Position numbers and translations under genes: made by a program
Notes under the pieces: model-generated
The model's database searches: none
Seen by the model: only the letters and a program-made list of their open reading frames with translations
Told to the model about the DNA's origin: nothing
Shown here: piece by piece, positions 1-26,302 of the stretch
Position numbering within the stretch: position 1 is the first letter of the stretch
How the letters are laid out: every line of letters begins with the position of its first letter
Assembly: GCA_037443365.1 (NCBI GenBank)
Contig: JBBIOM010000022.1
Span: 1-32,116, forward strand
Source: Armatimonadota bacterium
Lineage (GTDB): Bacteria > Sysuimicrobiota > Sysuimicrobiia > Sysuimicrobiales > Humicultoraceae
DNA: 32,116 bases
Reading direction: 5' to 3'

Positions 1-58
1 TTAGCGCGCAGCGTTCGGGACGCTGAGGCCGGGGGTTCAAATCCCCCCTCCCCGACCA
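1..58 (+). tRNA. tRNA-Pro (anticodon CGG), 5' end truncated by the window edge
   Basis: Anticodon stem CAGCG(9-13)/CGCTG(21-25) with loop TT-CGG-GA; T-arm GGGGG-TTCAAAT-CCCCC (31-47); 3' acceptor strand CTCCCCG, discriminator A, encoded CCA (56-58). Confidence 0.95.
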
Positions 59-6968: not shown

Positions 6969-8280
6969 GGCGCTGCAGTCCCGGCTGGGGGAGATCTTCC
7001 GCAAGATAGCCGGCCGGGGAACGCTCAGCCCCGAGGACGTGGACGCGGCGCTGCGCCAGGTGCGCATGGCCCTGCTCGAGGCCGATGTGAACTTCCGCGT
7101 GGCCCGCGAGTTCGTTGAGGGCGTGCGCGCGGCCGCGGTCGGGCAGGAGGTGTGGAAGCACCTGAACCCCGGCCAGCAGGTGATCAAGATCGTGCACCAG
7201 GAGATGATCCGGCTCCTGGGCGGGCAGGCGCGCGAGCTCCGCAGGGCCGCAGCGCCTCCCACGGTCATCCTGCTCGTGGGTCTGCACGGCGTGGGCAAGA
7301 CCACGACCGCGGGGAAGCTGGCCGGCTACCTGAAGCGCCGGGGCCGCACGCCGCTCCTCGTGGCCACCGACCTGAAGCGGCCGGCCGCGATCCGGCAGCT
7401 CGAGATCGTCGGCGACCATGTAGGGGTCCGCGTGTTCGCCCTTCGCGGGGAGACGGACTCGATTGGTGTGGCGCGAGCCGCGGTGGCCGCAGCCGCTGCG
7501 GACGGGCATGACGTGGTCATTGTGGATTCGGCGGGGCGGCTGCACGTGGACGACGAGCTGATGGCCGAGCTTGCCACGATGCACTCCGCGCTTGCCCCGC
7601 ATGAGACCCTGCTTGTGCTGGACGCGATGGCTGGGCAGGACGCCGTGCGCATGGCCGAGCAGTTCGGCTCGCGAATGCCGCTCGATGGCGTGGTGCTCAC
7701 CAAGCTCGACGGCGATGCCCGTGGCGGCGCGGCGCTCTCGGTCGTGGCCACGATCGGGCGCCCGATCCTGTTCGTCGGGGTGGGAGAGAGGCCCGACGCC
7801 CTGGAGAGGTTTCACCCGGACCGCATGGCATCGCGCATACTGGGGATGGGCGACCTGCTGACGCTGATCGAGCGCGCGGAGGCGGCCGTCTCGGCCGAGG
7901 ACGCGGCCGAGATGGAGCGCAAGCTGCGCCGGCAGCAGTTCACCCTGGGCGACTTCCTGGAGCAGCTGCGCCAGGTGCGCAGGATGGGGCCGCTGGACCA
8001 GCTGCTGGAGATGATCCCGGGCTTCGGCCGCATGCGCGAGGCCGGCGCCCAGGTGGACGAAGGGCAGCTCCGGAAGATCGAGGCCATGATCCAGTCCATG
8101 ACGCCGCGGGAGCGCGACTCGCCGACCGTGATCGACGGAAGCCGCCGTCGCCGCATCGCGCGGGGGAGCGGGGTGACCGTGCAGGATGTCAACCGGCTGT
8201 TGAAGCAGTTCGAGCAGGCACGCCGCCTCATGCGGCAGGTGGCGGCGCGCAAACCCAAGGAGGCAGAAAGATGGCTGTGA
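6961..8280 (+). CDS. ffh: Signal recognition particle protein Ffh
   Basis: [49 protein letters not shown]-domain [18 protein letters not shown]. Confidence 0.98.
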
Positions 8281-12240: not shown

Positions 12241-12606
12241 ATGACCACGTCCAACCGTCGGGCGCTGGGAGCGACGGGCGAGGCCGCGGCCGCTGCTTGG
12301 TTGGAGACACGCGGGTACCGCGTGCTGGCGCGCAATGTTCGGTCGCGGGCCGGGGAGATCGACCTCGTAGCGCGACAGGCCGACCTGGTCGTGTTCGTCG
12401 AGGTGAAGAGCCGCACCGGAGAGGCGTTCGGGCATCCCTCCGAGGCGATCGTCGGCCGCAAGCAGCGGCGCATCGCACGGCTGGCCGACGCCTTCCTGCA
12501 GGCTCATCGTTTGCACCGGTGCGCGGTGCGGTTTGACGCGATGGCGGTCCGGCTGGGCAGGGACGGCGAGGTGCTTGAGATCGAGCACATCCCTGACGCG
12601 TTCTGA
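12241..12606 (+). CDS. yraN: YraN (UPF0102) family putative endonuclease
   Basis: GATGEAAAAAWL..GYRVLARN..GEIDLVA..VFVEVKSR..RFD..HIPDAF. Confidence 0.93.
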   Translation: MTTSNRRALGATGEAAAAAWLETRGYRVLARNVRSRAGEIDLVARQADLVVFVEVKSRTGEAFGHPSEAIVGRKQRRIARLADAFLQAHRLHRCAVRFDAMAVRLGRDGEVLEIEHIPDAF

Positions 12607-12636
12607 CAACGCCAGGACTGCTCCCGCCGACCCGAA

Positions 12637-14085
12637 TCAGGACCCGAAGGCAGCGGGCCGGGAATCGCGGGGAGCCGAGAGGATGTGCCCGAGGAGCCGC
12701 CCCGCGGCCTCGGCGCCCTGCCGCACGCAGTCCGGGATGCCGATCCCCCGATAGCCGGCCCCGGCCAGGGCGAGCCCCGGGACCTCCCGGAGAGCGGCGT
12801 CAATGGCCGTCAGCCGCTCCGGGTGTCCTGCCGGGTACTGCGGCATGGCCCCAAACCACCGGGCCACGCGCGCGAACAGCGGCGATGCTTCGATCCCCAT
12901 GGTCGTCCGGAGGTCGGCCCGGACTGCGGCGATCAGCCGGTCGTCGTCTTCTCCGACGATCTCCTCACGGCCCGCCCTGCCGAGGTAGCAGCGGATCAGC
13001 GCGATCTCCGGGGGCGCCCTGTGCGGCCACTTGGACGATGCCCAGGTGCACGCGGTGATCGCGAGCGTGCTCCCGCGCGCGACCACGAACCCGTGCCCGT
13101 CAAGGGGATGGGCGAGATCGGCGCGGCGGAAGGCGAGCGTGACAGCCGCGGTCGAGACGTACGGGATCAGCCGCAGGGTGGCGGAGACCGCGGGGGCGAT
13201 CGGCTCCAGCAGGCCTGCGCTGATGTAGGCCGGGGTGGCGAGCAGGAGGGCGTCGGCGTCCAGCGCCGATCCTTGGTCCAGCGCTACCAGGAACCCTGCA
13301 CCCGGCCCGCCGCGGGGTGTTATGCGCCGCACCGTGCGGCCCGTCAGCATCACGGTGCCTTCGAGCGCCGTCTCTAGTGCCGCGACCATCTCGCCGAGCC
13401 CACCGATCAGGCTGAGGAACATGGGAGCGGGGCCGCGCTGGTGGACCTCGCGCGCCCGGCGCCTGCCAAGGGCCGCCAGGATGAGGCTGCGGTGTCCGGC
13501 TTCCCATTCCGCGAGGAGCGGGAACGTGGCCCGCACGCTCAGGGCGTCGGGGTCGCCCGCGTAGATGCCTCCGAGCAGCGGGCCGGCCAGGCGGTCTACC
13601 ACAGCATCGCCCAGCCTCCGCCGGAGCATCCCACCGATGGTCTCATCGCCCGGGCTCCGTCTGCGAGGCAGGACGAGGTCGGCGGCGGCCCGCAGTTTCT
13701 CCACCGGCGACAGCAGGCGGGTGCGCACCATCGGTCCGATCCGGGTGGGGATGCCGAACGCCATGCCTTCAGGCAGTGGATGGAGACGTCCCCTGTGCCA
13801 GACGTAGACCGCCCGGCCAGGCTGCGTGGGAACGATCCGTTCGCCGAGCCCGACCCGCCGGCACAGATCTGCCGCCCACGGCTTGGTGGAGAGGAACGAG
13901 TCCGGGCCGTTCTCGACGAGACAGCCATTGATCCGCTCGGTGAGGAGTTTGCCACCCAGCCGCGCGTCGGACTCGACGAGGGTACAGCGCACGCCCGCGG
14001 CCCGGGCGCGCGAATCGGTCACCAGGGCATGGGCGGCGGCCAGGCCCGTGATGCCGCCCCCGACGATGACAAGGTGCGGGCTCAC
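12637..14085 (-). CDS. hemY: HemY-type (copro/proto)porphyrinogen oxidase (CgoX-like)
   Basis: FAD motif IVGGGITG, RLGG, ENGPDSFL, PLLGGIYAGD, SSKWPHRAP, MPQY, GIGIPDCV; GTG 14085 overlaps the hemH stop (GTGA). Confidence 0.94.
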   Translation of the reverse strand: MSPHLVIVGGGITGLAAAHALVTDSRARAAGVRCTLVESDARLGGKLLTERINGCLVENGPDSFLSTKPWAADLCRRVGLGERIVPTQPGRAVYVWHRGRLHPLPEGMAFGIPTRIGPMVRTRLLSPVEKLRAAADLVLPRRRSPGDETIGGMLRRRLGDAVVDRLAGPLLGGIYAGDPDALSVRATFPLLAEWEAGHRSLILAALGRRRAREVHQRGPAPMFLSLIGGLGEMVAALETALEGTVMLTGRTVRRITPRGGPGAGFLVALDQGSALDADALLLATPAYISAGLLEPIAPAVSATLRLIPYVSTAAVTLAFRRADLAHPLDGHGFVVARGSTLAITACTWASSKWPHRAPPEIALIRCYLGRAGREEIVGEDDDRLIAAVRADLRTTMGIEASPLFARVARWFGAMPQYPAGHPERLTAIDAALREVPGLALAGAGYRGIGIPDCVRQGAEAAGRLLGHILSAPRDSRPAAFGS

Positions 14086-15008
14086 GTCCGGCGCCCCACG
14101 AGATCGGCCAGGGCGTCCAGCAGGCGCGGGTGGTCGTTGAGCGACGCGGCGCGCACGAACCGCATCCCCAGGCACGCGCACAGATCTCTGAGCTCGATGT
14201 CGAGGTCGTATAGCACTTCCAGGTGGTCGGCCACGAAGCCGATGGGGCAGGAGACCACGCCGCGCCCCCCGGCCGCGTGAAGGCGCCGCACCTCATCGCG
14301 CACGTCCGGGCCGAGCCACGGCTCGGATGTGCGGCCGGCGCTCTGGTAGGCGAGCGTCCAGCGCTGGACACCCACCCGCTTGGCGACCTCCGCCGCGGTC
14401 CGGCGCAGTTCGTCCGGGTAGGGGTCGCCCCAGGTGAGAACACGCTCCGGCAGGCTGTGGGCCGAGAAGACGACAGGCGTCTCTGCGCGGATCGCGCTCG
14501 GCAACTCCGCCAGCGCGGCCGCGAGTCGTTCGGCGACCGCGTCGAGGAACGCCGGGTGCTCGCCCCAGCGCTCCACGTACGCCATCGGGAACGGCCGCGG
14601 CAGCGCCCGCCGCGCCTCCTCCGCGTGCTCGAAGTAGGTGCCTGTGCTCATCCGCGAGTAGTGGGGCGCCATCACGAGGCCGACGCCCTCGGCGATGCCG
14701 TCGTCGGCCATCCGGCGGACGACGTCACCGATGAACGGCGCCGCGTGCTTCATGCTCACGTAGACGCGCCACCGACCCGGCGCGATGGCCTCGAGCCGCG
14801 TCTGGAGCCCGTCGGCCTGGCGGCGGGTCAGCTCGTCAAGCGGCGACCAGCCAATCGCCTCGTACCGGGCAGCAACCTCCGTCAAGAGGTCCGCGGACGG
14901 CGAGCGGCCGCGCCGGATTCGCGTGTAGTAGGCCTCCAGATCCTCGGGGCCGGTCGGGCTGCCGTGAGCCATCAGCAGGACCCCGATCGAGGGGAGGGCT
15001 CTGCTCAT
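14082..15008 (-). CDS. hemH: Ferrochelatase, Firmicute/coproporphyrin (CpfC)-type
   Basis: LLMAHGSP..YYTRIRRGR..RYEAIG, APHYS, FSAHSLP (catalytic His), YQSAGRTSEPWLGPDV, GFVADHLEVLYDLD (catalytic Glu). Confidence 0.95.
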   Translation of the reverse strand: MSRALPSIGVLLMAHGSPTGPEDLEAYYTRIRRGRSPSADLLTEVAARYEAIGWSPLDELTRRQADGLQTRLEAIAPGRWRVYVSMKHAAPFIGDVVRRMADDGIAEGVGLVMAPHYSRMSTGTYFEHAEEARRALPRPFPMAYVERWGEHPAFLDAVAERLAAALAELPSAIRAETPVVFSAHSLPERVLTWGDPYPDELRRTAAEVAKRVGVQRWTLAYQSAGRTSEPWLGPDVRDEVRRLHAAGGRGVVSCPIGFVADHLEVLYDLDIELRDLCACLGMRFVRAASLNDHPRLLDALADLVGRRT

Positions 15009-16039
15009 GCGCGCCTGCCCTTGGCAGGGGTGTGCTCGTGGACCAGCTCCACGAGGCGCCGCAGGTGGTCCGGGGGCGTCTGCGGCAGCACGCCGTGTCC
15101 CAGGTTGAAGATGTGCCCAGGCCGCCCGCCAGCCTGATCCAGGACATCGCGCGCGGCCTCTGCGGCGACCTCAAACGGTGCGAGAAGCGCGCGGGGATCG
15201 AGGTTCCCCTGGATCCCGGCGCTGCCGATTCGCGCCCAGGCGTCGGAAAGACCGATCCGCCAGTCCACGCCGATGACGTCCCCACCGGATTGCGCCATGA
15301 GGGGAAGCAGCCCGGCGGTGCCGGTGCCGAAGTGAATCACCGGCACCCCGCAGGGGATCAGTTCGCCGAAGAGCCTCCTCATGTGCGGCGAGACCGCGCG
15401 CTCGTAGTCGCGCGGCGCCAGTTCGCCCACCCATGAATCGAATACCTGCAGGGCCTGCGCGCCAGCATCCACCTGGGCCCTCAGGTACGCGATCGTCGCA
15501 TCGGTCAGGCGGCCCATGAGCCGGTCCCAGAGCGCGGGCGCGCCCAACATCATCGCCTTGGTCTGGGGCAGGTCGCGGGAGCCCCGCCCCTCGATCATGT
15601 AGCTGGCCAGCGTGAAAGGCGCGCCCGCGAAGCCGATCAACGGCACGCGGGCCTGCTCCCGCACGAGGCGGATTGCCTCGAGGACGAATCGCAGGTCGCG
15701 CTGTGGGTCCAGGGGGCGCAGCGCGTCTACCTGGGCCTCGGTGCGTATCGGCGCCCCGATCACCGGTCCCGTGCCCTCCACGATCTCGAACGGGACGCCC
15801 ATGCCAACAAGCGGCAGCATTATGTCGGCGAACAGGATGGCCGCATCCACGCCGAGCTGATCCACCGGCAGCAGCGTGACCTGGGCGCAGAGCTCCGGCG
15901 TGCGGACGAGGTCCAGCATCGAGTAGCGAGCCCGCAGCGCGCGGTACTCGCTCTGGTAGCGGCCGGCCTGGCGCATGAACCACACCGGCGTGCGGTCCGT
16001 GGGCTCGCCGCGGCAGGCGCGCAGGAACCGATCGTTCAT
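15005..16039 (-). CDS. hemE: Uroporphyrinogen decarboxylase
   Basis: PVWFMRQAGRY, DAAILFADI, GFAGAPFTLASY, QVFDSW, QGNLDP, HIFNLGHG; ATG 16039 overlaps the upstream stop (ATGA). Confidence 0.97.
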   Translation of the reverse strand: MNDRFLRACRGEPTDRTPVWFMRQAGRYQSEYRALRARYSMLDLVRTPELCAQVTLLPVDQLGVDAAILFADIMLPLVGMGVPFEIVEGTGPVIGAPIRTEAQVDALRPLDPQRDLRFVLEAIRLVREQARVPLIGFAGAPFTLASYMIEGRGSRDLPQTKAMMLGAPALWDRLMGRLTDATIAYLRAQVDAGAQALQVFDSWVGELAPRDYERAVSPHMRRLFGELIPCGVPVIHFGTGTAGLLPLMAQSGGDVIGVDWRIGLSDAWARIGSAGIQGNLDPRALLAPFEVAAEAARDVLDQAGGRPGHIFNLGHGVLPQTPPDHLRRLVELVHEHTPAKGRRA

Positions 16040-17157
16040 GCGGGCTCGTAGGGGCACAGGGGATCCTCGGCCAGGACGTCACCGGTGTGCGCGAACGCCC
16101 GGGCCCTCGATCCTCCGCAGATCACCCTGTACTCGCAGCGCCCGCATCTGCCATGCAGCCGCGACGTGTCGCGCAGCGCGGTGAAGAGTGGGTTTGAGCG
16201 GTAGATCTCAGGCAGGGAGCCGCTCCGCACGTTGCCCGCGGACAGCGGGAGGAACCCCGACGGTGCCACCTCGCCGGTCCTTGAGATGAACATGATGCCG
16301 TTGCCGTCACGGATGCCGAACCCCCGTCCGACGCTGCTGCGTTGCACCTGGGCGCCATCCATCCCCGCGGCCTGCATCCGCGCCAGCGCCACGCGCCGGT
16401 AGTGCGGGGCCTCGGTCGTCTTGATCGCGAAGGGCGCCCGCTCGCTCTGGTCGTAGATCCAGTCCATCAGGCATTCCGCGTCATGGGGCGCCATCTCGCG
16501 AAGGGAGGTCCCGCGCCCCACCGAGATCAGGAAGAACAGGCTCCATCTCTCCACGGGCAGCGACGCCAGCAGATCGTAGATAGCCGGCAGGTCGGGTGCG
16601 GTCTCCGAAGTCACGAGCGTGTTGATCTGGAGCGGGATTCCTGCCGCGGTGACCCAATCCACGGCCCGCATCGTCAGATCGAAGCAACCCGGCACGCCGC
16701 GGAACGCGTCGTGACGATCGGGGTTCGAGCCGTCGAGGCTCAGCGACATGCTCTGGATGCCGGCCTCGCGCAGGCGCTCGACGGCTTCCGCGGTCAGCAG
16801 GCTCGTGCCGCTGGGCGCCAGCGAGACCCCGATTCCCAGGCGCCCGGCTTCCTCTATCAGGTCGTGCAGGTCGGCCCTCTTGAGCGGATCGCCGCCGGTG
16901 AGCACCAAGTGCGGCAGCGGGCGGCCGAACTTCGGCACCTGCCGCAGCAGCGCGCAGGCCTCGCCGGTCGTCAGCTCGTCCGGGTCGCGATTCACCATCG
17001 CCTCCGCGCGGCAGTGGCGGCAGGCCAGATCGCAGGCCCGGGTGAGCTCCCAGTAGATGAGCATGGGTGCCCTGGCGTACTCGTGTCCAGCCTGCGCCGC
17101 ACGCACCGCCTCGTATGACGGCTCGGCCGCGCCAGGCCGGATGCGCGAGGGATGCAT
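16036..17157 (-). CDS. Radical SAM protein with partial SPASM domain, AhbD/NirJ-like (resembles the TIGR04053 family)
   Basis: WELTRACDLACRHCRA (CxxxCxxC), LTGGDPL, SLSLDG, C-terminal CGRCEYRVICGGSRARA..EDPLC; start ATG 17157 or GTG 17160, coupled to the hemL stop. Confidence 0.88.
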   Translation of the reverse strand: MHPSRIRPGAAEPSYEAVRAAQAGHEYARAPMLIYWELTRACDLACRHCRAEAMVNRDPDELTTGEACALLRQVPKFGRPLPHLVLTGGDPLKRADLHDLIEEAGRLGIGVSLAPSGTSLLTAEAVERLREAGIQSMSLSLDGSNPDRHDAFRGVPGCFDLTMRAVDWVTAAGIPLQINTLVTSETAPDLPAIYDLLASLPVERWSLFFLISVGRGTSLREMAPHDAECLMDWIYDQSERAPFAIKTTEAPHYRRVALARMQAAGMDGAQVQRSSVGRGFGIRDGNGIMFISRTGEVAPSGFLPLSAGNVRSGSLPEIYRSNPLFTALRDTSRLHGRCGRCEYRVICGGSRARAFAHTGDVLAEDPLCPYEPA

Positions 17158-18473
17158 CACCGGGCCGCCTCCGCGAACGCGCCCCGCGCCGCCGCGAGCG
17201 TGCGCGCGACGTCCTCCTCGGTGTGCGAGGCCGAGACGAACCATGCCTCGAACTGCGAGGGCGGGACGAGCACTCCCTTGGAGAGCATCGCCCTGAAGAA
17301 CCGCGCGAAACGGGACGTATCGGCCGTCCTGGCCGTAGCGTAGTCGCGCGGCGGCTCCTTCGTGAAGAACACCGTCAGCATCGAGGCCACGTGGGCAACC
17401 GACGCCACGCACCCTGCCTCGGCCGCGGCCTGGGCGAGCCCCAGCGCAAGGCGCGAAGTGAGCGCGTCGAGGCGCGCGTAGAACGCCGCGTCAGCCAGGC
17501 GCCGAAGCGTCACGACCCCGGCCGTCATGGCCAGCGGATTCCCGGAGAGGGTCCCTGCCTGGTAGACCGGGCCCAGCGGCGCCACGGTCTCGATCACATC
17601 ACGCCGCCCGCCGTAGGCACCCACAGGCAGCCCTCCGCCGATGATCTTGCCCAGACAGACGAGGTCGGGCCTGATGCCGAAGCGCGCCTGCGCGCCCCCC
17701 TGTCCAAGCCGAAATCCGGTGATGACCTCGTCGAAGATCAACAGCGCGCCCTCGCGAGAAGTGATCTCGCGCAGCCCCTGCAGGAACCCGCCTGCCGGCA
17801 TCACCACGCCCATGTTGGCCGCCACGGGCTCGACGATCACCGCCGCGATTGCCCCGGGGTTGGCCGCGAACAGCGCCGTTGTGGCGTCCAGGTCGTTGTA
17901 CTCCGCCACCAGCGTGTCGGCCACCGCGGGGGCCGGGACGCCGGCGCTGCTGGGCAGCCCGAAGGTGGCCACGCCGGAGCCTGCCTGGGCCAGCAGCGGA
18001 TCGGCGTGGCCGTGGTAGCAGCCGGCGAACTTGATGATCTTGTCACGCCCCACAAACCCCCGCGCCGCGCGGATCGCGCTCATCGAGGCCTCGGTCCCGG
18101 AACTGACGAAGCGCATGCGCTCCATCGCCGGGACCGCCCCTCGGATGAGGCGGGCCAGTTCGACCTCCTCGGACGTGGGCATCCCGTAGCTGGTTCCTGC
18201 CGCGGCCCGCTGTCCGATGGCTGCCACCACCTGCGGGTCGGCATGCCCCAGCACAAGCGCCCCCCACGAGCCCACGTAGTCGAGGTACTTGCGGCCGTCG
18301 AGGTCGGTCAGATACGCGCCGCGCGCGGAACGCACGACGATAGGGCTGCCGCCGACCGCGCGAAACGCCCGCACCGGGCTGTTCACCCCTCCGGGGAACA
18401 GACCCTCGGCCTCCTCGAAGACGGCCGCGCCCAGCGGCCCCGCGGATGCAAGGTTGTCCATGCGCTGCCTCAC
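17157..18473 (-). CDS. hemL: Glutamate-1-semialdehyde 2,1-aminomutase (alternative start ATG 18461)
   Basis: PGGVNSPVRAF, DYVGSWG, SGTEA, GCYHGH, FDEVITGFR, GKIIGGG (PLP Lys), YQAGTLSGNP, PSQFE. Confidence 0.97.
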   Translation of the reverse strand: MRQRMDNLASAGPLGAAVFEEAEGLFPGGVNSPVRAFRAVGGSPIVVRSARGAYLTDLDGRKYLDYVGSWGALVLGHADPQVVAAIGQRAAAGTSYGMPTSEEVELARLIRGAVPAMERMRFVSSGTEASMSAIRAARGFVGRDKIIKFAGCYHGHADPLLAQAGSGVATFGLPSSAGVPAPAVADTLVAEYNDLDATTALFAANPGAIAAVIVEPVAANMGVVMPAGGFLQGLREITSREGALLIFDEVITGFRLGQGGAQARFGIRPDLVCLGKIIGGGLPVGAYGGRRDVIETVAPLGPVYQAGTLSGNPLAMTAGVVTLRRLADAAFYARLDALTSRLALGLAQAAAEAGCVASVAHVASMLTVFFTKEPPRDYATARTADTSRFARFFRAMLSKGVLVPPSQFEAWFVSASHTEEDVARTLAAARGAFAEAAR

Positions 18474-19738
18474 GCCTCCCCAGGTTCCTCGGAGTCCACC
18501 GCCAGTTCGAAGAGCTCGGCCGCCAGCTCCAGCGTGCGCGCGTCGTTGCGGGCCGCGGATGCGCGCAGGCGCAGGATCGGCGCCTGGAGCAGCCTGCGCG
18601 CCGTGGCCCTGGCTACCACGCGCACCGCGGCGTGCTGCGCTTCGCTCAGGCCGGCCAGGCGCGTGCGCGCGCGGGCAATCTCGCCTTCCGCGACGGCCTC
18701 CGCCCTGCGCTGCAACGCCGCGATCAGTGGAACCGCCCTACGGGACGCCATCCATTCCTCGAACCCTGCCAGGGCCGCCTCCACGATCGCTTCGGCGCGC
18801 GCCAGATCCTCGGGTGCAACCTCTCCCAGGACCGGCTCGCCCTGGAACTGGTCCAGCGCGTGGAGCGTGACTCCCGGCAGCGCGGCTACCGCCGCGTCCA
18901 CGCCGCGCGGAATGCCCAGGTCGATCACCAGCAGCGGGCGGTCCCGGTCCGCTCCGATGGCATCCGGCGACACGAGCGGCCCGTCGGCGCCCACGCAGAC
19001 GACCATCAGGTCAACGCTGCTGCTCATCTCCGCGATCGCCTCGAGGGAAATCGCCCGGGCCCCGGAGGGGGCCCCCAACTCGCGTGCCGCCTCCAGGGTG
19101 CGGTTGGCCACGGCCACGATCCTGGCCCCGCATTCTGCCAGGAGCCTCACAACGATCGATGCGACCTCCCCGGCACCTACCACGAGCGTGGCCCTTCCGT
19201 CCAGTCGGCCCAGCGCGCGCCTGGCGAGCAGTACCGCGGCCCGAGGGATCGAAGGCGCGCCGCGCGACACGCGGGTTTCGCGGCGCACGCGGCGCCCGGT
19301 GGCTATGGACAGCGCGACCAGGCGGTTGAGCACGGGTCCGGTATGACGGCCCTGGCGCGCGAGATCGAAGGCACGTTTCACCTGCCCGAGTATCTGCTCC
19401 TCGCCCAGCACCATCGAGTCGAGCCCGGAGGCGACCCGCAGTATGTGCCGCGCGGCCGTCCTCCCGCTACGCTCGTAGAGCGAGGCCGCAAACGCCTCGG
19501 TCGGGACTCCGCGCGCGGCGGCGAGCGTCCGGGCCACAGCGGCAGTCGGGGGCGCGCCGGGCGTGATCAGGTACGCCTCGGTGCGGTTGCAGGTGGATAT
19601 CAACATCCCCTCAGAGATCCCCTCGTCTCGGCGCAGCGCCTCGAGAACGGGCAACAGGTCCGCTTCCGCGAGGGCCACGCGCTCGCGCACCTCTACAGGC
19701 GCGGTCCTGTGACTGAGCCCGATCGCCGACAGGATCAT
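18470..19738 (-). CDS. hemA: Glutamyl-tRNA reductase
   Basis: GLSHRTAPVEVRE, STCNRTE (catalytic Cys), SGLDSMVLGEEQILGQVK, NADPH motif VGAGE, NRT. Confidence 0.96.
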   Translation of the reverse strand: MILSAIGLSHRTAPVEVRERVALAEADLLPVLEALRRDEGISEGMLISTCNRTEAYLITPGAPPTAAVARTLAAARGVPTEAFAASLYERSGRTAARHILRVASGLDSMVLGEEQILGQVKRAFDLARQGRHTGPVLNRLVALSIATGRRVRRETRVSRGAPSIPRAAVLLARRALGRLDGRATLVVGAGEVASIVVRLLAECGARIVAVANRTLEAARELGAPSGARAISLEAIAEMSSSVDLMVVCVGADGPLVSPDAIGADRDRPLLVIDLGIPRGVDAAVAALPGVTLHALDQFQGEPVLGEVAPEDLARAEAIVEAALAGFEEWMASRRAVPLIAALQRRAEAVAEGEIARARTRLAGLSEAQHAAVRVVARATARRLLQAPILRLRASAARNDARTLELAAELFELAVDSEEPGEA

Positions 19739-20751
19739 CGCTGGGCGAGGCCCCCCGCGTCTTCCCTCAACCAGCGCGCAACGTCGGCCGCGGCGTAGGT
19801 GATTACGAGATCGGCTCCTGCGCGGCGAATGGCGACCAGCACCTCGCTCATCGCGCGGCGCTCCTCCAACCAGCCCAGTTGGGCCGCGGCCTTGAGCATC
19901 GCGTACTCGCCGCTCACGTGGTAGGCGGCGATCGGAAGCGATACCGCCTCACGGGCGGCGCGTATGACGTCGAGATAGGCGTGGGCGGGCTTGATCATGA
20001 TGATGTCGGCGCCCTCTTTCGCGTCCAGCACAACCTCGCGCAGGGCCTCGCGCACGTTGGCCGGGTCCATCTGGTAGGCGCGCCGGTCGCCGAACTGCGG
20101 GGACGACCCCGCCGCCTCGCGGAACGGGCCATAGAAGGCCGAGGCGTACTTTGCCGCGTAGGCCATGATGCCCACCTGGCCGAAGCCGCCCTCGTCGAGC
20201 GCCTCGCGTATGGCGGCGACCTGCCCGTCCATCATGGCGCTGGGCGCCACCACGTGCGCGCCCGCGGCCGCGTGCGACACCGCGGTGCGGGCCAGCAGGC
20301 CCAACGTCGCGTCGTTGTCCACCCCGTCACCGCACACAACCCCGCAGTGCCCGTGGTCGGTGTAGGCGCACAGGCAGACGTCGGTCATGACAACGGGCAC
20401 GCGGTTCCCCTGTCGGAGCAGGCGCACGGCCTGCTGGATGACGCCGTCGTCCGCGTAGGCCCCGCTGCCGGAGGGGTCCTTCGCGTCGGGAACGCCGAAC
20501 AGCAGCACGGCCTGGATGCCAAGATCCGCCAGGGCGTCCACCTCGCGTGCGAGCTCGTCGGGAGAGAAGCGCGTCTGGCCGGGGAGCGACGCGATAGGTT
20601 CCCTGACACGCGTGCCGGGCCGAACGAACAGGGGCGCGATGAGCATCTCCGGGTGCAGCCGGGCTTCTGCCACGAGCCGCCGGAGCGCATCCGTGGCGCG
20701 CAGCCGGCGCGGACGCACGCGCAGATCAGCGCGCGGTGATTCCCCTGACAT
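19735..20751 (-). CDS. hemB: Porphobilinogen synthase (ALA dehydratase), Zn-type
   Basis: RPRRLR, DVCLCAYTDHGHCG (Zn ligands), APSAMMDG, KYASAFYGPFREA, YQMDP, MIKPA, YHVSGEYAM; ATG 20751 fits the AAAGGAG spacing better than 20757. Confidence 0.97.
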   Translation of the reverse strand: MSGESPRADLRVRPRRLRATDALRRLVAEARLHPEMLIAPLFVRPGTRVREPIASLPGQTRFSPDELAREVDALADLGIQAVLLFGVPDAKDPSGSGAYADDGVIQQAVRLLRQGNRVPVVMTDVCLCAYTDHGHCGVVCGDGVDNDATLGLLARTAVSHAAAGAHVVAPSAMMDGQVAAIREALDEGGFGQVGIMAYAAKYASAFYGPFREAAGSSPQFGDRRAYQMDPANVREALREVVLDAKEGADIIMIKPAHAYLDVIRAAREAVSLPIAAYHVSGEYAMLKAAAQLGWLEERRAMSEVLVAIRRAGADLVITYAAADVARWLREDAGGLAQR

Positions 20752-21556
20752 CGCCATCTCCTTTCATCCCGGCGCCTCGCCCTCGGCTGTGGGCGACCAG
20801 GGCGGCGATCAGCCCATCCGCCGTGTGCTCGCCGGCCACGAAGGCCGGCTCGAATCCCTCTTGCGTCACCGCTGCGGCCGTGACCGGGCCTATGCAGCCG
20901 ATCACCATCGCCCGAAGGCCACGGCGCTCCTCTCCGAGCAGGGCCACCAGGCCGCGCACCGTCGAGGCGCTCGTGAAGAGCACGGTGTCCACCCCCCGTG
21001 ATCCGATAAGGCGGCACGCCTCGGCGCGCGATCGCCTCGGCGCCTCGACCGTCCTGTAGGCCGTCACCTCGTCCACGATCGCGCCCAGGGCAGTCAGCGC
21101 CCTGCGCAGCCCTGGGCCGGCGGCATCCGTGCGCGGCAGCAGCACGCGCGCCCCGGCGACATCGCCCAAAGCGTCGGCGATCGCCTGGGTCAGGTATCTG
21201 GATGGAGTCACGATGTCCGGGACCCCGGCCCGCTTGAGGCCTCTTGCGGTGTACGGCCCTGTCGCCGCCCACCGCGGTCGGGCCCTGCCGGCAAGGTCTA
21301 CACCCAGGGCCCTCGCCCGTGATGCGAGGGCGCGCGCGCCGTTCGCGCTCGTCACCACGACCCAATCGAACCTGTCGATCTCCCGCAGGGCCGTATCCAG
21401 CGGTCCGCCCGCGCGCGGTCCGGCAACGGCTATCGTTGGCACCACCACCGGCTGCGCTCCAAGCCGGATGAGCCGGGCGCACATGCGGCGGCTCTGGCGC
21501 CGCGGACGCGTGACCAGGATGCGCCGGCCGGCCAGCGGCAGCGCCTTCGTACTCAC
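20726..21556 (-). CDS. hemD: Uroporphyrinogen-III synthase
   Basis: LAGRRILVTRP, DWVVVTSANG, GPYTA, AYRT, FTSASTV, CIGPVTA; GTG 21556 overlaps the hemC stop. Confidence 0.93.
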   Translation of the reverse strand: MSTKALPLAGRRILVTRPRRQSRRMCARLIRLGAQPVVVPTIAVAGPRAGGPLDTALREIDRFDWVVVTSANGARALASRARALGVDLAGRARPRWAATGPYTARGLKRAGVPDIVTPSRYLTQAIADALGDVAGARVLLPRTDAAGPGLRRALTALGAIVDEVTAYRTVEAPRRSRAEACRLIGSRGVDTVLFTSASTVRGLVALLGEERRGLRAMVIGCIGPVTAAAVTQEGFEPAFVAGEHTADGLIAALVAHSRGRGAGMKGDGDVRGITAR

Positions 21557-22461
21557 CCGGCCGCCTCCCGCAGGAGCGCGCTGGCTCCCTCGGCCAGCAG
21601 TCGAGTCGCCAGACGCGCACCCAGCTCCGCCGGCGCCGCGACTCGGCCCTCGGCTCCGGCCCGCACCATGCTCTCCCCGGATGGGGCCAGCACCGCGCCC
21701 TGGAGCACCAGGCGCGCGCCGCCGGCGACAGCCAGCGCGGCGATCGGGCGCTGGCATCCCCCGCCCAGGCCGGCCAGGAAGGCGCGCTCCGCCTCCACGG
21801 CGGCGCGGGTTGGCCAGTCGTCCAGCGCAGAGAGTTGCTCCTCCAGGCAGTCCTGGCCAGCACGGCACTGAATCACCACAGCGCCCTGGCCGACCGCCGG
21901 GAGCATCACAGAAGGATCCAGGCGCTCCGCGGCGTGAGCCGCGATGCCAAGCCGCTCCAGGCCGGCTGATGCGATCACGAGCGCGTCCACCTCGCCGGAC
22001 TCCAGCTTGCGGATTCGGGTGTCCACGTTGCCTCTCGTGTCGCGCACCACCAGGCGCGGATTCGCGGCCAGCAGGAACGCCCGGCGTCGCGGGCTCCCGG
22101 TGCCCACCACGCTGCCCGGGGCAAGGCCGCGCAGCCCGGCGCCGTCCCTCGTCATCAGCGCGTCCCTGGGATCCCCGCGCGACGTGAACGCCACCAGCGT
22201 CAAGCCCGGCGTGGCTTCCACCGGAAGGTCCTTGGCGCTGTGCACTGCCAGATCAACCCTTCCTTCCAGCAGCGCGGTTTCGATCTCCCGCACGAACGCG
22301 CCCACGCCGAGGCCGGCCGCAGGACGATCGGGATGCCGGTCCCCCTGCGTGCGGACCGTGACGACCTCGCATCTGTGGCCTTCGGCCTCCAGCGCAGCGA
22401 CCACGGGCGCGGTCTGGGCCATGGCGAGCGCGCTGGCGCGCGTGCCGATGCGCAGGTTCAC
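21553..22461 (-). CDS. hemC: Hydroxymethylbilane synthase (porphobilinogen deaminase)
   Basis: RIGTRASALAMAQ, AVHSAKDLP, GTGSPRR, RGNVDTR, PAVGQG, GGGCQRP (cofactor Cys). Confidence 0.97.
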   Translation of the reverse strand: MNLRIGTRASALAMAQTAPVVAALEAEGHRCEVVTVRTQGDRHPDRPAAGLGVGAFVREIETALLEGRVDLAVHSAKDLPVEATPGLTLVAFTSRGDPRDALMTRDGAGLRGLAPGSVVGTGSPRRRAFLLAANPRLVVRDTRGNVDTRIRKLESGEVDALVIASAGLERLGIAAHAAERLDPSVMLPAVGQGAVVIQCRAGQDCLEEQLSALDDWPTRAAVEAERAFLAGLGGGCQRPIAALAVAGGARLVLQGAVLAPSGESMVRAGAEGRVAAPAELGARLATRLLAEGASALLREAAG

Positions 22462-23117
22462 TGGAGCATGCGCCTTCGCGCATCCCGTCCTTGCGTGCGC
22501 TCCTCATCCCACGCGCGCAGCACCGACATGAAGACCGCGTCGAGGAGGTCGCTTACCTCTACGAGCGTTCGCGCCTGATCCTCATCCAGCATGCCGCCGC
22601 GCCCCCTGGGCTCGGTCACCGTCTTGAGCACGAGGTGCCGGAAGAAGCCGAAGGCCTCGGCGACCTCCACCGGCCCCAGGCCCGCCCTTCGCAGTTGGCG
22701 CCCGTAGTTGCGGCTGTGCTCCTCCATCTTCCTGCGAACGGATCTTCGCGATCGAGGGTCCGCCGCATACCGGGCGAGCGCGGTGAACAGGTGCCGGCCG
22801 TGCGCGCGCGCCCGAGCCCGCAGCGGCTCACCGAGCCCGGCGAACCAGGGCCGCGCCGCCAGCACCCGCGCCGGCCTTCTGGCCAGCAGCTTGGCGCACC
22901 GGCGCTCCAGGAGCCGCCCCAGATCCTCCACGCGGGGAACCTCCTGGTGCATCAGCGCGCGCAGGTCGCCTTCCTGAAACCGCCTGTGCCCGCCGGGAGT
23001 CCGGAAGGTCCGCACCCTTCCGGTGTCGGCCCAGTGCCGCAGCGTTGCCTCGTCCACTCCCAGACGGGTTGCGGCCTGGCCGAGCGGCAGCCAGCGCTCA
23101 ACGCGTTGCTTGCCCAT
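22458..23117 (-). CDS. BldC/excisionase-like (MerR-fold) HTH regulator with a C-terminal all-helical, probably globin-like domain
   Basis: WLPLGQAATRLGVDEATLRHWADTG..RTPGGHRRF..DLRAL; SD GGAGGG before ATG 23117; stop overlaps the hemC start (GTGA). The C-terminal fold is inferred from helix pattern only. Confidence 0.85.
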   Translation of the reverse strand: MGKQRVERWLPLGQAATRLGVDEATLRHWADTGRVRTFRTPGGHRRFQEGDLRALMHQEVPRVEDLGRLLERRCAKLLARRPARVLAARPWFAGLGEPLRARARAHGRHLFTALARYAADPRSRRSVRRKMEEHSRNYGRQLRRAGLGPVEVAEAFGFFRHLVLKTVTEPRGRGGMLDEDQARTLVEVSDLLDAVFMSVLRAWDEERTQGRDARRRMLQ

Positions 23118-23139
23118 CGTGGCCCTCCGGGCTGGCTTT

Positions 23140-23172
23140 CTATGCAAGCCTACGCAATCCTACACTAATCTA
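23140..23172 (-). repeat. Four imperfect direct repeats with exact 10-bp period
   Basis: Minus strand reads TAGATTAGTG / TAGGATTGCG / TAGGCTTGCA / TAG(AAAGCCA); on the + strand CTA starts at 23140, 23150, 23160 and 23170. Confidence 0.7.
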
Positions 23173-23195
23173 GCGGCACCAGGGGGTGTTGCCAA
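23167..23195 (-). promoter_or_regulatory. Putative sigma70-type promoter of the heme operon
   Basis: Minus strand TTGGCA (23195-23190), 17 nt spacer, TAGATT (23172-23167). Confidence 0.65.
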
Positions 23196-23336
23196 GGGGG
23201 CAGCCGGGCGCAGTACCGGCCATCACGGCCAGGGGAACCGTCTGGCCCGAGTAGGAGTTTTCCCGGGCGGGTGCGAACTAACAGGGCGCGCGCCGCAGAT
23301 CGGGCGACGCACGGGTGTCTATTGGAGGGATCCCGC

Positions 23337-24329
23337 ATGACGGTCTATCGCACGCTTGTGATTGTGACCGTGCTTGTCCTGGCCCTCGTAGGGACGTCAG
23401 TGCAGGCCCAGCCGCGGCCGGGCTGGCCGCGGAGCGTGACAATTGGCTCCGCCACGATCGGCGGAGTCTACTTCGTGGTGGCTGGCGGCTACGCGCGGGT
23501 AATCGGCGAGAAGATGGGGATGGCGGCCACCAACCGGGTGACCGGAGGCCCGGTGCAGAACGTGCAGCTCGTGCAGACCAAGGAGATCGAGCTGGGCATG
23601 ACCACGACCGGCCCGGCCTACGAGGGGCTCAACGGCCTCGGGGACTTCAAGGGAAGGAAGACCGACGCGATCCGCGTTGCGTTCCCGATGTACACCTCTT
23701 ACGCGCACTGGATCGTCAACGCCGACTCGCCCATCCGGTCGGTGGCCGACCTCACTGGCAGGGTTGTGAGCCTCGGACCCCGCGGCGGCTCCGCGGAGTT
23801 CGTGGGCGACCGGGTGATCGAGATGTTCGGCATCAAGCCGCGGCGCGTGGTCTACCTTGCATTCGCCGATGGCGCCACGGCGCTGCGCGACGGCACCGTG
23901 GACGCCTGCTTCGGCGTGATCGGGCTGCCGGTTCCGGCCTGGGTAGAGGCCGCGCTCACCCGGCCGATGCGGTTCCTCGGGTTCACAAGGGAGCAGGTCG
24001 AGACCCTTACCGAGAAGTTTCCCTATCTGGCGCGCACCGCCATCCGCGCCGGCGTCTACCGCGGCCAGGACCACGTCATCCCCACCGTGCAGATGTGGAA
24101 CGCGGCGGTCGTGCACAAGGACATGCCCGAGGACTTCGTCTACACGCTCACCAAGACGATCTTCGACAACCGGGAGTTCCTGGCGACAGTGCACGCCACG
24201 TCACACGAGACGATGCCGGTGAACGTCTTCTACATCAAGCTCCCGTTGCACCCTGGCGCCGTGAGGTACTTCCGCGAGCAGGGAGTGCGGATCACGGATG
24301 AGCAGATCCCGCCCGAGATGAAGCGGTAG
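23337..24329 (+). CDS. TAXI-family TRAP transporter substrate-binding protein
   Basis: Sec signal peptide ending VQA; IGSATIGGVYF, VTGGPVQN, IRSVADLTGRVVSLGPRGGS, PLHPGAVRYFRE; SD GGAGGG before ATG 23337. Confidence 0.93.
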   Translation: MTVYRTLVIVTVLVLALVGTSVQAQPRPGWPRSVTIGSATIGGVYFVVAGGYARVIGEKMGMAATNRVTGGPVQNVQLVQTKEIELGMTTTGPAYEGLNGLGDFKGRKTDAIRVAFPMYTSYAHWIVNADSPIRSVADLTGRVVSLGPRGGSAEFVGDRVIEMFGIKPRRVVYLAFADGATALRDGTVDACFGVIGLPVPAWVEAALTRPMRFLGFTREQVETLTEKFPYLARTAIRAGVYRGQDHVIPTVQMWNAAVVHKDMPEDFVYTLTKTIFDNREFLATVHATSHETMPVNVFYIKLPLHPGAVRYFREQGVRITDEQIPPEMKR

Positions 24330-24355
24330 CGTCGGCGACGAGAGGAGACGACCCG

Positions 24356-26302
24356 ATGACCGACCCGTCGGTCGGCCTCCCGGTTGACATCGAGCAGCTA
24401 GGGGACACCTCGGAGATCCGCACGCGGCCTCTCCGGGGTGTCCTGCGCATTCTGGTTCAACTGCTCGGCGTCGGGATGGCCGCCTATCACATACTGCAGC
24501 TCGGCGGCTTCTTCGGGGTCGTGACCGATCCGCAGAAGCTGTACGCGGTACATCTGGCCTTCGTGCTAGTGCTCGCCTTCCTGTTGATCCCTGGCAGGCG
24601 CGCCTCGGCCGCGGCGCCGACCATCTTCGACTGGGCGTTAATCCTGGCGAGCCTTGCCGTGGTGGTCTACGTGTTCGTTGTCTTCAAGGCGCTGACCGGG
24701 CGGGCAGGCGCCTTCCCGACGCGCGAGGATGTATTCTTGGGCACCCTGCTGCTCATCGTCACGATCGAGGCGGTGCGGCGGTCCACGGGCGTTGCGCTGC
24801 CGATTCTGTGCGGTCTGTTCATTGTCTACGTGTTTGCGGGGCCCTGGCTGCCCGGCCTGCTGGCGCACAAGGGTTTCCGGTTCGACACCCTGATATCGTT
24901 CCTGTTCAGCGACAACGGGATCTACGGCGTCCCCATCGGCGTGTCCGCCCGGTACGTCTACCTGTTCATCCTCTTCGGGGCGTTCATAGAGGCCTCGGGC
25001 ATCGGCAAGTTCATTGTGCACCTGGCGCTCAGCGTGGCCGGGAGCAAGCGCGGCGGGCCGGCCAAGGTCTCGATCATAACGAGCAGCCTCTTTGGGACCG
25101 CAAGCGGCTCCTCGGTCGCCAACGTCATGGTGGACGGGGTCATCAACATCCCCCTGATGAAGGCCACGGGGTTCAGGGGCGCGGTGGCCGGAGGGGTCGA
25201 GGCGATGAATAGCACCGGTGGACAGATCGTGCCGCCGGTGATGGGGGCCGCGGCCTTCCTCATGGCCGACATCATCGGCGTCCCGTACTCGGAGATCGCC
25301 GTGGCCGCGATTGGGCCGGCGCTGCTGTACTACGTGGCCGCCTACTGGATGATTGACTTCTACGCGGCTTCGGCCCACCTGCACGGGCTCCCGCGAGAGC
25401 AACTGCCCAGGTTCCGGGCGGTCTTGTTCCAGCACGGGTACCTGCTGATCCCGCTCGTGCTGCTCCTCTACATGATCATGGGGGCCGGCGCTTCGCCGTT
25501 CCGCGCCGCCCTCTACGCCCTGGGCAGCACGGTTGTCCTCTCGTGGATGCGGGCAGACACGCGCCTGAACCTCCGCAAGATCGTGGGTGCCATGGAAGAT
25601 GGCGCAAAGCGCACGATCGAGATCGGGGCCACGTGCGCCGCGGCCGGCATCATCGTGGGGGTGCTCTCGCTCACCGGCCTTGGGGGAAAGTTCTCCGAGC
25701 TGCTCATTGACCTGGCCGGCGGAAGCCTGCTTCTCGCGCTCATCGCCACGATGGTGGTGGCCATCATTCTCGGCATGGGCATGCCCACGACCGCGGCATA
25801 CGCGATCGGCGCGAGCGTGCTGGCGCCGGCGCTGATCAAGCTCGGCGTGATCCCGCTGGCCGCCCACATGTTCCTCTTGTATTTCGCTGTGCTGTCGGCG
25901 ATCACGCCGCCCGTGGCCCTGGCCTCGTTCGCCGCGGCGAGCCTGGCCAAGGCCGGGATGTGGGACACCGGGGTGCAGGCCGTGCGGCTGGCCATTGCCG
26001 GTTTCATTGTGCCCTACATGTTCGTCTACGGTCCGGCGATACTTGTGGGGCAGGGGCCGTGGCTGCCTACGCTGCTTGCGCTCGCTACGGGAACGATCGG
26101 CACGCTCTGCCTGGCCGGCGCCGCCATAGGATACTTCCTCAGGCCGGCCACGGTGCTGGAGCGCCTGCTGCTTCTTCCGACGTCCCTGCTATTGATCCGG
26201 CCCGGCCTGTTGACCGACGGCCTGGGTCTGGGGCTGCTCGCGCTCGTGGTTGTCCTGCAGCGCGTGATGCCCAGGGCCTCGCGGCAGATGCCTGCCACCT
26301 GA
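24356..26302 (+). CDS. TRAP transporter fused permease (4TM/12TM, DctQM-like)
   Basis: Highly hydrophobic; GIYGVPIGVS, GGPAK, SGSSVANV, STGGQIVPPVMGAAAF, LGMGMPTTAAY, ITPPVALA. Confidence 0.94.
   Translation: MTDPSVGLPVDIEQLGDTSEIRTRPLRGVLRILVQLLGVGMAAYHILQLGGFFGVVTDPQKLYAVHLAFVLVLAFLLIPGRRASAAAPTIFDWALILASLAVVVYVFVVFKALTGRAGAFPTREDVFLGTLLLIVTIEAVRRSTGVALPILCGLFIVYVFAGPWLPGLLAHKGFRFDTLISFLFSDNGIYGVPIGVSARYVYLFILFGAFIEASGIGKFIVHLALSVAGSKRGGPAKVSIITSSLFGTASGSSVANVMVDGVINIPLMKATGFRGAVAGGVEAMNSTGGQIVPPVMGAAAFLMADIIGVPYSEIAVAAIGPALLYYVAAYWMIDFYAASAHLHGLPREQLPRFRAVLFQHGYLLIPLVLLLYMIMGAGASPFRAALYALGSTVVLSWMRADTRLNLRKIVGAMEDGAKRTIEIGATCAAAGIIVGVLSLTGLGGKFSELLIDLAGGSLLLALIATMVVAIILGMGMPTTAAYAIGASVLAPALIKLGVIPLAAHMFLLYFAVLSAITPPVALASFAAASLAKAGMWDTGVQAVRLAIAGFIVPYMFVYGPAILVGQGPWLPTLLALATGTIGTLCLAGAAIGYFLRPATVLERLLLLPTSLLLIRPGLLTDGLGLGLLALVVVLQRVMPRASRQMPAT

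Follow-up and report, generated by a model that had tools for sequence, protein, structure and literature searches.

What controls the heme-biosynthesis operon encoded on a 32,116-nucleotide (nt) contig of an Armatimonadota bacterium (JBBIOM010000022.1 of assembly GCA_037443365.1; the whole of this stretch is called the window here), and through which DNA element and which signal would that control be exerted? The operon begins with a minus-strand gene (22458-23117) for a protein of 219 amino acids (aa), in which a winged helix-turn-helix (HTH) head of the BldC type is joined to an all-helical sensor domain resembling the non-heme, RsbR-type branch of the globins. We consider it likely that this protein, hereafter the regulator, is a one-component transcription factor dedicated to its own hem operon and acting through conserved repeats in the promoter, and the position of the putative operator indicates that it is probably an autoregulated repressor of tetrapyrrole synthesis. 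Both parts of the protein are of known kinds; new are the pairing of a BldC-type head with an RsbR-type sensor and the regulon that comes with it.

The open reading frame (ORF) of the regulator (P0001) translates without internal stops. Its longest version starts at a TTG at 23147 (229 aa), and the ATG at 23117 was chosen over it because a Shine-Dalgarno-like GGAGGG (23122-23127, minus strand) ends 4 nt 5' of this ATG and because the closest homologues (P0003-P0005) are each 219 aa long. The gene is not a chance ORF, since 179 relatives were found at E ≤ 0.001 among 8000 scored candidates and a profile search returned 365 clusters (50% identity) at E ≤ 1e-30; the database names given to this family are generic ("helix-turn-helix" or "excisionase family" protein), and a search of the protein Atlas returned the family's own clusters only, with scores of 0.81-0.86 that serve as leads only. 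The GTG with which the next ORF, hemC, begins overlaps the TGA stop of the regulator (22458-22460) as GTGA; behind hemC, the genes hemD, hemB, hemA, hemL, a radical SAM/SPASM gene, hemE, hemH and hemY follow on the same strand in tight spacing (Table 1). Because nine genes are packed behind it on the same strand, we regard the regulator gene as the first of a ten-gene operon (12637-23117). No Rfam family, riboswitches included, was found in the leader or in the rest of the operon.

The N-terminal head of the regulator belongs with BldC by sequence and by fold. Pfam matches to MerR, HTH_17 and MerR_1 are confined to aa 12-57, the best NCBIfam model is HTH_BldC (NF033787, E 1.1e-12), and the top sequence matches in the PDB are the BldC entries 6amk (E 5.5e-8) and 6ama (1.1e-7). 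In an AlphaFold2 (AF2) model of the regulator, built on a 45-sequence alignment (mean predicted local distance difference test score, pLDDT, 88.8; predicted template-modelling score, pTM, 0.70), the head matches 6ama and 6amk with Foldseek template-modelling (TM) scores, relative to the target, of 0.84-0.90, and VIA aligns it to 6amk_A with Z 8.9 and a root-mean-square deviation (rmsd) of 1.1 Å over 52/52 residues at 40% identity; by both comparisons it has the MerR-like winged HTH fold without the coiled coil of classical MerR proteins. The alignment with 6amk and 6ama equates BldC residue n with regulator residue n-2, an offset that fits all residue types named in the BldC paper (PMC5859096). 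There, His46, Arg47 and Arg48 are given as the wing residues that enter the minor groove, and Phe21, Val23 and Trp31 as packing against Leu11, Ile40, Thr42, Leu43 and Gly44 in the hydrophobic head-to-tail interface. The regulator has the recognition helix T25-L-R27-H28-W29 and the wing T40-P-G-G-H44-R-R46, whose H44, R45 and R46, the equivalents of the BldC wing residues, are invariant in the 45 full-length family sequences on which our statements of conservation rest. All eight interface equivalents (L19, V21 and W29; W9, F38, T40, P41 and G42) are kept as hydrophobic or identical residues, and each is invariant or nearly so in the family. On these alignments, the regulator probably keeps the BldC binding mode.

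The DNA element through which this head would act lies directly upstream of the gene. TTGGCA-17 nt-TAGATT (23195-23167) is the sole sigma-70-like site on either strand of 12300-23500 (11.2 kb), and from its -10 box onward (23172-23133) run four head-to-tail 10-bp repeats, TAGATTAGTG / TAGGATTGCG / TAGGCTTGCA / TAGAAAGCCA, an array that spans the -10 box of this near-consensus promoter and its first ~30 transcribed bases. Tandem Repeats Finder (TRF) reported a period of 10 with a weak score (34 over 2.4 copies), and TAGRNTTRNNTAGRNTT as a search pattern has two matches in the window, both within the operator, against an expectation of 0.01. The same array, with the approximate consensus yAGrhTTnnn in three or four copies, is present upstream of orthologues across phyla. 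We scored a position weight matrix (PWM) made from six Armatimonadota-type sites, the window's own included, on both strands of 75 non-training loci, and the best match of the locus fell within 200 nt upstream of the gene on the coding strand in 29 of the 75, where fewer than one such locus is expected by chance on a rough estimate. Of these sites, 27 lie 57-98 nt before codon 8, and the remaining two (L061 at -152 with 9.6 bits, L071 at -154 with 1.3 bits) lie on the upstream promoter region. The sites of L029 (Dehalococcoidia) and L005 are near-identical, and the proteins they precede share ~35% identity. The Chloroflexota loci have a canonical TTGACA-N17-TAGAAT promoter upstream of the repeats, which therefore form an element separate from the promoter hexamers, in the early transcribed region. 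At L053, a ~1-kb AT-rich insertion with one ORF (L053:1060-2134) separates the regulator from hemA, and four operator-like direct repeats are found ~70-110 nt upstream of hemA.

A protein bound over the -10 box and the early transcribed bases should block RNA polymerase, so that the regulator gene and the hem operon behind it would both be repressed. Activation in the style of MerR uses a palindromic operator within an over-long promoter spacer of 19-20 bp; the promoters found here are good ones with 17-nt spacers, and the operator sits at or after the -10 box, for which reasons repression is favoured over MerR-type activation. No second operator above 14 bits was found in the window's genome among the positions that pass a two-sub-motif prefilter, which may hide weak sites, and the regulator therefore looks local. 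A looser regular expression for three repeats did match at G000:C5:38868 in this genome, and we rejected the match as a further target because it looks like Pho boxes; at this place (G000:C5:38858-38905, equal to L081:3359-3405), three 11-bp direct repeats, GTAGGTTTTTCC CAGGTTTGACA TAGGGTTTACC, have an OmpR-type regulator gene on one side and a pstS-like gene on the other. Upstream of hemA in the unlinked genomes L088 and L089, inspection by eye revealed no convincing operator repeats (the operon start of L089 lies outside its locus).

A link between the regulator and heme synthesis extends well beyond the window. We compared 80 loci, all from metagenome-assembled genomes (MAGs) with one genome scanned per species, by tblastn with the hem proteins of the window: a hem gene follows 3' on the same strand in 53 loci, the regulator stands just after chdC-hemE-hemH in 2, full flanks hold no hem gene 3' in 14, and the downstream sequence is too short to judge in 11. 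Among the loci with at least 1 kb downstream, hem linkage amounts to 49/64. The linked loci span Armatimonadota, Candidatus Sysuimicrobiota, Chloroflexota (mostly Dehalococcoidia), Thermomicrobiota and one Bacillota MAG, and they occur in both deep branches of a quick maximum-likelihood tree. The linkage is not one inherited block, because gene order differs between clades: hemC comes first behind the regulator in some, hemA followed by hemC in others, and a sirC-like gene followed by hemA in yet others, the order in Chloroflexota being regulator, siroheme-synthase-N-like gene, then hemA-hemC-hemD-hemB, sometimes with a radical SAM gene between. At L029:6001-7260, the frame of the regulator continues for 440 aa into the sirC-like region, as a fusion or through an assembly frameshift. 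The unlinked members form two groups, a small one from Dehalococcoidia and a clade of 14 from Thermomicrobiales and Chloroflexia that includes a single linked row. Next to them lie dnaA or dnaN at seven loci of Chloroflexota or Thermomicrobiota (L061, L062, L064, L069, L072, L079 and L080), a molybdopterin oxidoreductase gene, in front of which the member stands, at three (L038, L057 and L065), and other genes at four.

Downstream of the head, the ~160 C-terminal residues are all-helical in the AF2 model at high confidence and are joined to it by a short linker (pLDDT ~77 at aa 51-70). The best fold match of this domain is the non-heme globin pXO2-61 (3pmc_B; VIA Z 13.7, rmsd 2.4 Å, 132/132), a Z to be read with the caveat that helical models often reach about 13 through chance arrangement. 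Further VIA matches are the DosC globin (Z 10.6), the stressosome sensor MtR of Moorella (3zta, Z 10.3), RsbR-N (2bnl) and the T. elongatus globin 8h17 (Z 9.9 each), Rv2242-N (Z 9.6), further globin-coupled sensors (Z 9.4-9.6), phycobiliproteins (Z about 8-9.4) and the globin domains of photocobilins (Z 7.3-7.6); the heme sensor globins DosC, GsGCS, BpeGReg, AfGcHK and HemAT span Z 8.3-10.6 and appear among the Foldseek rows as well. A globin-like, RsbR-N-like fold is supported because the top 12 VIA rows, save the regulator fragment Rv2242-N, are all globin-fold and each span the full domain. Foldseek returned nothing at E ≤ 0.001 for the whole model, and its rows for the C-terminal domain are weak (3pmd, E 0.037, TM relative to the target 0.66). 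At the sequence level, a Pfam scan of this domain at E ≤ 10 gave Phasin and RsbRD_N only, Globin and Protoglobin being absent; the RsbRD_N match (PF14361) covers profile positions 4-102 of 104 with E 0.087 and 14.0 bits, below the threshold of 24.3. Across the family's C-terminal domains, RsbRD_N is matched at E ≤ 0.01 in 2/50 and Rsbr_N (PF08678) in 1/50, and a precomputed PF14361 match is recorded for 12/120 among the homologues listed. The domain belongs to none of the curated sequence families, and no B12-binding Pfam domain was matched in the regulator. A profile of the domain against PDB sequences gave chance-level matches only (best E 0.047, to designed proteins), and the link to this fold therefore rests on structure comparison.

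Much of what had been proposed from the DNA alone has held up to this point. The original prediction had put an undescribed regulator at the head of a minus-strand operon, its stop overlapping the hemC start, and the ORF map, the GTGA overlap and literature searches that found no description of the family agree; supplementary files, which lay outside the search, might list the architecture. It had read the N-terminal ~55 aa as a BldC-like HTH and the C-terminal helices as globin-like or RsbR-N-like, and these readings are confirmed by Pfam, HTH_BldC and the sequence and fold matches to 6amk and 6ama for the one, and by the VIA matches to pXO2-61, DosC, MtR and RsbR-N for the other, the structure comparison (AlphaFold model with VIA) having matched a sensor-globin/RsbR-N fold and not an unrelated one. 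The hem linkage of homologues, which it had named as a check, is likewise borne out at 49/64 loci. The operator repeats and the predicted dimer described below are additions to it.

The sensor domain is predicted to dimerise. For aa 58-219, the homodimer prediction reached an interaction prediction score from aligned errors (ipSAE) of 0.58, against 0.00 for the best control, in three runs that share at least 89% of contacts with a partner pLDDT of at least 70; the mark used for a dimer is reached by 20/30 solved homodimers and 1/23 solved single chains, and the pass may partly reflect likeness to known dimers, because globin-sensor dimers have been solved. According to the prediction, the subunits meet through their last two helices (aa 148-204), which form a symmetric bundle; in it, R160 of one subunit contacts D193 of the other, and positions 153, 157 and 161 also take part. 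R160 and D193 are both invariant, and this contact offers a structural reason for their invariance. We propose that protomers would bind the 10-bp repeats head-to-tail in the manner of BldC, a mode suggested by the direct repeats together with the conserved BldC interface, while the sensor domains would dimerise through their last two helices and the four repeats would be occupied by two dimers. Such an arrangement would be akin to that of OmpR/PhoB-type regulators, with tandem DNA-binding domains on direct repeats; these are the other direct-repeat binders named in the BldC paper (PMC5859096). The sensor domain would then set the affinity for DNA on a small-molecule signal, which could serve as co-repressor or as inducer.

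Several observations weigh against this picture of a dedicated, BldC-like repressor. The HTH_BldC score of the head (47.6 bits) is below the NCBIfam cut-off of 77, the Arg22-Glu16 salt bridge of BldC is replaced by G20 and Q14, and the base-contacting Arg30 and Lys26 are replaced by H28 and A24, so that DNA specificity must differ; the recognition helix, which does not keep these two, carries the invariant R27. Cooperative head-to-tail binding is accordingly not assured. In the model, moreover, a symmetric dimer by its nature would fit direct repeats poorly, and the fit would need flexibility in the linker at aa 51-70. The best PWM match is not upstream in 46/75 non-training loci, many of which have a related, shifted or divergent motif by eye, such as GTTTTGCACAATTTAGTGAGGTT, and several of the 29 upstream sites score low (<10 bits), some of the 27 well-placed ones included. 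As to the linkage, hem genes are absent downstream of the regulator at 15/64 loci with sufficient flank. In the five genomes checked, the unlinked gene is the sole full-length copy (4/4 without G002, which is flagged unpublished), and in the regulator-bearing genome G004, whose completeness is not known, neither HemA nor HemB was matched; from the sole copies and from G004 we conclude that the family also has members with other tasks.

Next comes the signal, on which the candidate explanations diverge. We tentatively propose that, as the first member of the BldC class under effector control, the regulator would use a histidine-free globin to bind a product or intermediate of the pathway (heme, coproheme or a porphyrin(ogen)) non-covalently and would thereby switch head-to-tail winged HTH assembly on the four-repeat operator. 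For the ligand itself, a feedback tetrapyrrole of this kind, for which conserved Arg, Tyr, Trp and Phe residues would provide the contacts inside the globin pocket, seems plausible, its chances falling somewhat short of even; in its favour are the dedicated link to the pathway and, by analogy, the photocobilins, in which a histidine-free globin domain holds biliverdin non-covalently (PMC10979010). The conserved residues of the sensor domain are W91, R104, G107, R108, L110, Y138, G139, G146, F156, F159, R160 and D193, as well as A155. The twelve named before A155 are equally conserved in the members linked to dnaA or dnaN and to molybdenum-cofactor (Moco) oxidoreductases, which speaks against a tetrapyrrole as ligand, as do the closest structure, pXO2-61 of the RsbR-type branch, and the lack of any conserved His or Cys at aa 59-219 in the 45 full-length sequences and 50 C-terminal domains. 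Because no His or Cys is conserved and the conserved residues are common to hem-unlinked members, classical heme ligation by this domain is unlikely on sequence grounds; a non-covalently bound tetrapyrrole or another anionic lipophile is a possible ligand. The original prediction had pointed to several His and Tyr residues, with the caveat that no obvious His stands at the globin F8 position. That these His might ligate heme we rejected, since H106, H109, H134 and H161 vary among close relatives, and Y138 is left as the sole conserved candidate axial ligand. Of its larger claim, a one-component repressor that senses heme, coproheme or a porphyrin, the fold and the hem linkage agree with a one-component regulator and the operator position suggests a repressor role; the sensing of a tetrapyrrole is neither supported nor refuted, given the missing His and Cys, the non-heme signals of the RsbR branch and the residues shared with unlinked members.

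The same regulator and operator could instead be run by an RsbR/pXO1-118-type non-heme globin that reads a non-tetrapyrrole signal, be it a fatty acid, another anionic lipophile or a growth or stress cue, with the hem operon one of several acquired outputs, an explanation that we regard as possible yet doubtful. It would account for a best fold match, pXO2-61, above every heme globin (Z ≤ 10.6), for sequence matches that go to RsbRD_N or Rsbr_N and never to Globin or Protoglobin, for sensor residues that are identical next to dnaA/dnaN or Moco oxidoreductase genes, and for a genome such as G004; and in the RsbR branch a conserved Arg at a position analogous to the proximal His is reported to potentially bind the carboxylate of a fatty acid (PMC8717448). 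It sits less well with a hem linkage that is dominant and present in both deep branches of the tree, with the rule that a local regulator with a single genomic operator usually senses its own pathway, and with the biliverdin of the photocobilins, which shows that globin-like domains without His can hold tetrapyrroles and to which the sensor domain bears some likeness (8j2w, Z 7.6).

A true heme-binding sensor globin, with heme b as prosthetic group and with O2, NO, CO or redox state as the signal passed on to the hem promoter, appears improbable to us: the likeness to DosC, GsGCS, BpeGReg, AfGcHK and HemAT would fit it, and control by O2 would be sensible because the operon mixes an O2-dependent hemY-type oxidase with a radical SAM enzyme, but no His is invariant or nearly so in the sensor domain, only Y138 could serve as a conserved axial ligand, and neither Pfam globin family is matched at E ≤ 10. 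Rather unlikely, too, is a C-terminal domain that binds no ligand and serves dimerisation or oligomerisation only, in which case the regulator would either hold hem expression at a fixed level, as an architectural or constitutive autoregulator similar to BldC, or activate transcription by remodelling the promoter, of which MerR and BldC are both capable. The predicted interface does explain R160, D193 and positions 153, 157 and 161, and BldC works without an effector as activator or repressor (PMC5859096). The interface list does not include W91, R104, R108, L110, Y138, F156 and F159, however, and these conserved residues would lie on the earlier helices that line the pocket of a globin, as placed by secondary structure only; the 17-nt spacers with near-consensus hexamers and the repeats at or downstream of the -10 box argue against activation in the MerR style.

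For the control of heme synthesis in Chloroflexota, Armatimonadota and related, mostly uncultured phyla, our literature searches found nothing, and the regulator family is a concrete candidate with a defined operator. A BldC relative fused to a sensor would show head-to-tail binding of direct repeats under the control of a ligand, and with the regulator the RsbR-type non-heme globins, about whose natural signals little is known, gain an output that binds DNA. Should the tetrapyrrole-gated repressor of the BldC class prove true, Chloroflexota, Armatimonadota and their neighbours would have a dedicated feedback repressor of tetrapyrrole synthesis, and a "non-heme" globin could serve as a sensor of heme or porphyrin.

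The features of the operon are collected in Table 1. The true start of hemD is probably near the hemC stop, because its Pfam domain begins at aa 131 of the longest ORF. The operon pairs coproporphyrin-type genes (hemE, hemH and hemY) with an AhbD-like radical SAM/SPASM gene, for which TIGR04053 gives 466 bits (cut-off 395) and the AhbD model TIGR04545 gives 324.6 bits (cut-off 500). No match to Chlor_dismutase/ChdC was found in the window's own genome (G000, 2.22 Mb, 97.7% complete), and this gene may encode an oxygen-independent coproheme decarboxylase in place of ChdC. Divergent from the regulator is a TAXI-family tripartite ATP-independent periplasmic (TRAP) transporter (23271-26302, plus strand), composed of an NMT1_3 binding protein and then a fused DctM-type permease with a DUF3394 piece. 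Elsewhere in the window, an ORF at 6108-6968 (plus strand) fuses a YlxM/UPF0122 HTH to an MTS-type methyltransferase domain and is flanked by ftsY-like (5089-6003) and ffh-like (6961-8280) genes, and positions 1-55 (plus strand) hold the 3' part of a tRNA gene truncated at the contig end (Rfam, 36.2 bits; no complete tRNA by ARAGORN).

Table 1. Regulator gene, its promoter region and the genes of the hem operon, in window coordinates.
Feature	Position	Strand	Evidence
-35-like hexamer TTGGCA	23190..23195	-	sigma-70-like site scan
-10-like hexamer TAGATT, also the start of repeat R1	23167..23172	-	sigma-70-like site scan; sequence
Putative operator, four head-to-tail 10-bp repeats	23133..23172	-	sequence, TRF, pattern count, orthologue conservation
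Regulator coding sequence, 219 aa	22458..23117	-	translation; homologues
BldC-type winged HTH, aa 7-58	22944..23099	-	Pfam/NCBIfam, BldC sequence and fold matches
Sensor-globin/RsbR-N-like all-helical domain, aa 63-208	22494..22931	-	AF2, VIA, Foldseek, weak RsbRD_N match
hemC, porphobilinogen deaminase	21553..22461	-	Pfam (E 1.6e-70)
hemD, uroporphyrinogen-III synthase (longest ORF)	20726..21868	-	Pfam, NCBIfam
hemB, 5-aminolevulinate (ALA) dehydratase	19735..20757	-	Pfam
hemA, glutamyl-tRNA reductase	18470..19738	-	Pfam
hemL-type class-III aminotransferase	17157..18473	-	Pfam
Radical SAM/SPASM, TIGR04053, AhbD-like (longest ORF, domain from aa ~111)	16036..17412	-	Pfam, NCBIfam
hemE, uroporphyrinogen decarboxylase	15005..16057	-	Pfam
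hemH, ferrochelatase	14082..15008	-	Pfam
hemY-type (copro/proto)porphyrinogen oxidase, last gene of the operon	12637..14181	-	Pfam, NCBIfam

How does the regulator compare with systems already known? Irr, HrtR, HrrA/ChrA, PerR and Fur/DtxR, which regulate heme synthesis or respond to heme, have folds and DNA-binding domains unrelated to those of the regulator, and Pfam and NCBIfam scans of the regulator gave no match to these families, no sequence search against them having been made. CarH/LitR differ in that no B12-binding Pfam match follows the HTH of the regulator, and the Foldseek TM relative to CarH is 0.17-0.18. From classical MerR proteins it is set apart by a 17-nt spacer and by direct repeats at or downstream of the -10 box in place of a palindrome in a long spacer. 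Similar in architecture are the photoglobins, for which fusions to MerR-HTH and HTH_17 are listed (PMC8717448): photoglobins and photocobilins (8j2w, 8j2y) share with the regulator a non-heme globin-like domain and, in some members, the same type of HTH, the N-terminus of 8jbs matching the HTH of the regulator only (E 1.7e-4). They differ in belonging to another globin family, in a weaker fold match (Z 7.3-7.6), in sensing light and in their B12-binding domains, none of which was detected in the regulator.

The globin-coupled sensors (DosC, HemAT, GsGCS, BpeGReg and AfGcHK) likewise fuse a sensor-globin fold to an output domain, whereas in the regulator family the proximal His (F8) is unconserved and the globin-like domain is C-terminal; theirs is N-terminal, and their outputs are cyclases, kinases or methyl-accepting chemotaxis proteins (MCPs). 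To the RsbR-type non-heme globins (3pmc, 3pmd, 2bnl and 3zta) the likeness is greater: the fold matches over the whole domain, no heme-ligating His is present, a weak RsbRD_N sequence signal is found and dimerisation through the C-terminal helices is predicted. Unlike these globins, with their STAS/stressosome or kinase-inhibition outputs, the regulator carries a DNA-binding domain, and its sensor falls below the Pfam threshold; its conserved arginines are R104, R108 and R160, the last of them predicted at the dimer interface.

With BldC of Streptomyces (6ama, 6amk), finally, the regulator shares the MerR-like winged HTH fold, the GGHRR wing and the hydrophobic interface positions, and its putative operator is likewise an array of ~10-bp direct repeats with an AT-rich core in each. 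BldC is a stand-alone domain of 68 residues with no effector or oligomerisation domain and with the DNA consensus AATTXXXX(C) (PMC5859096). The regulator, in contrast, has 219 aa with an added, folded C-terminal domain of 146 residues and a predicted dimer, its repeats read yAGrhTTnnn, H28 and A24 stand at the base contacts in place of Arg30 and Lys26, and it is found on hem operons, whereas BldC acts on development genes.

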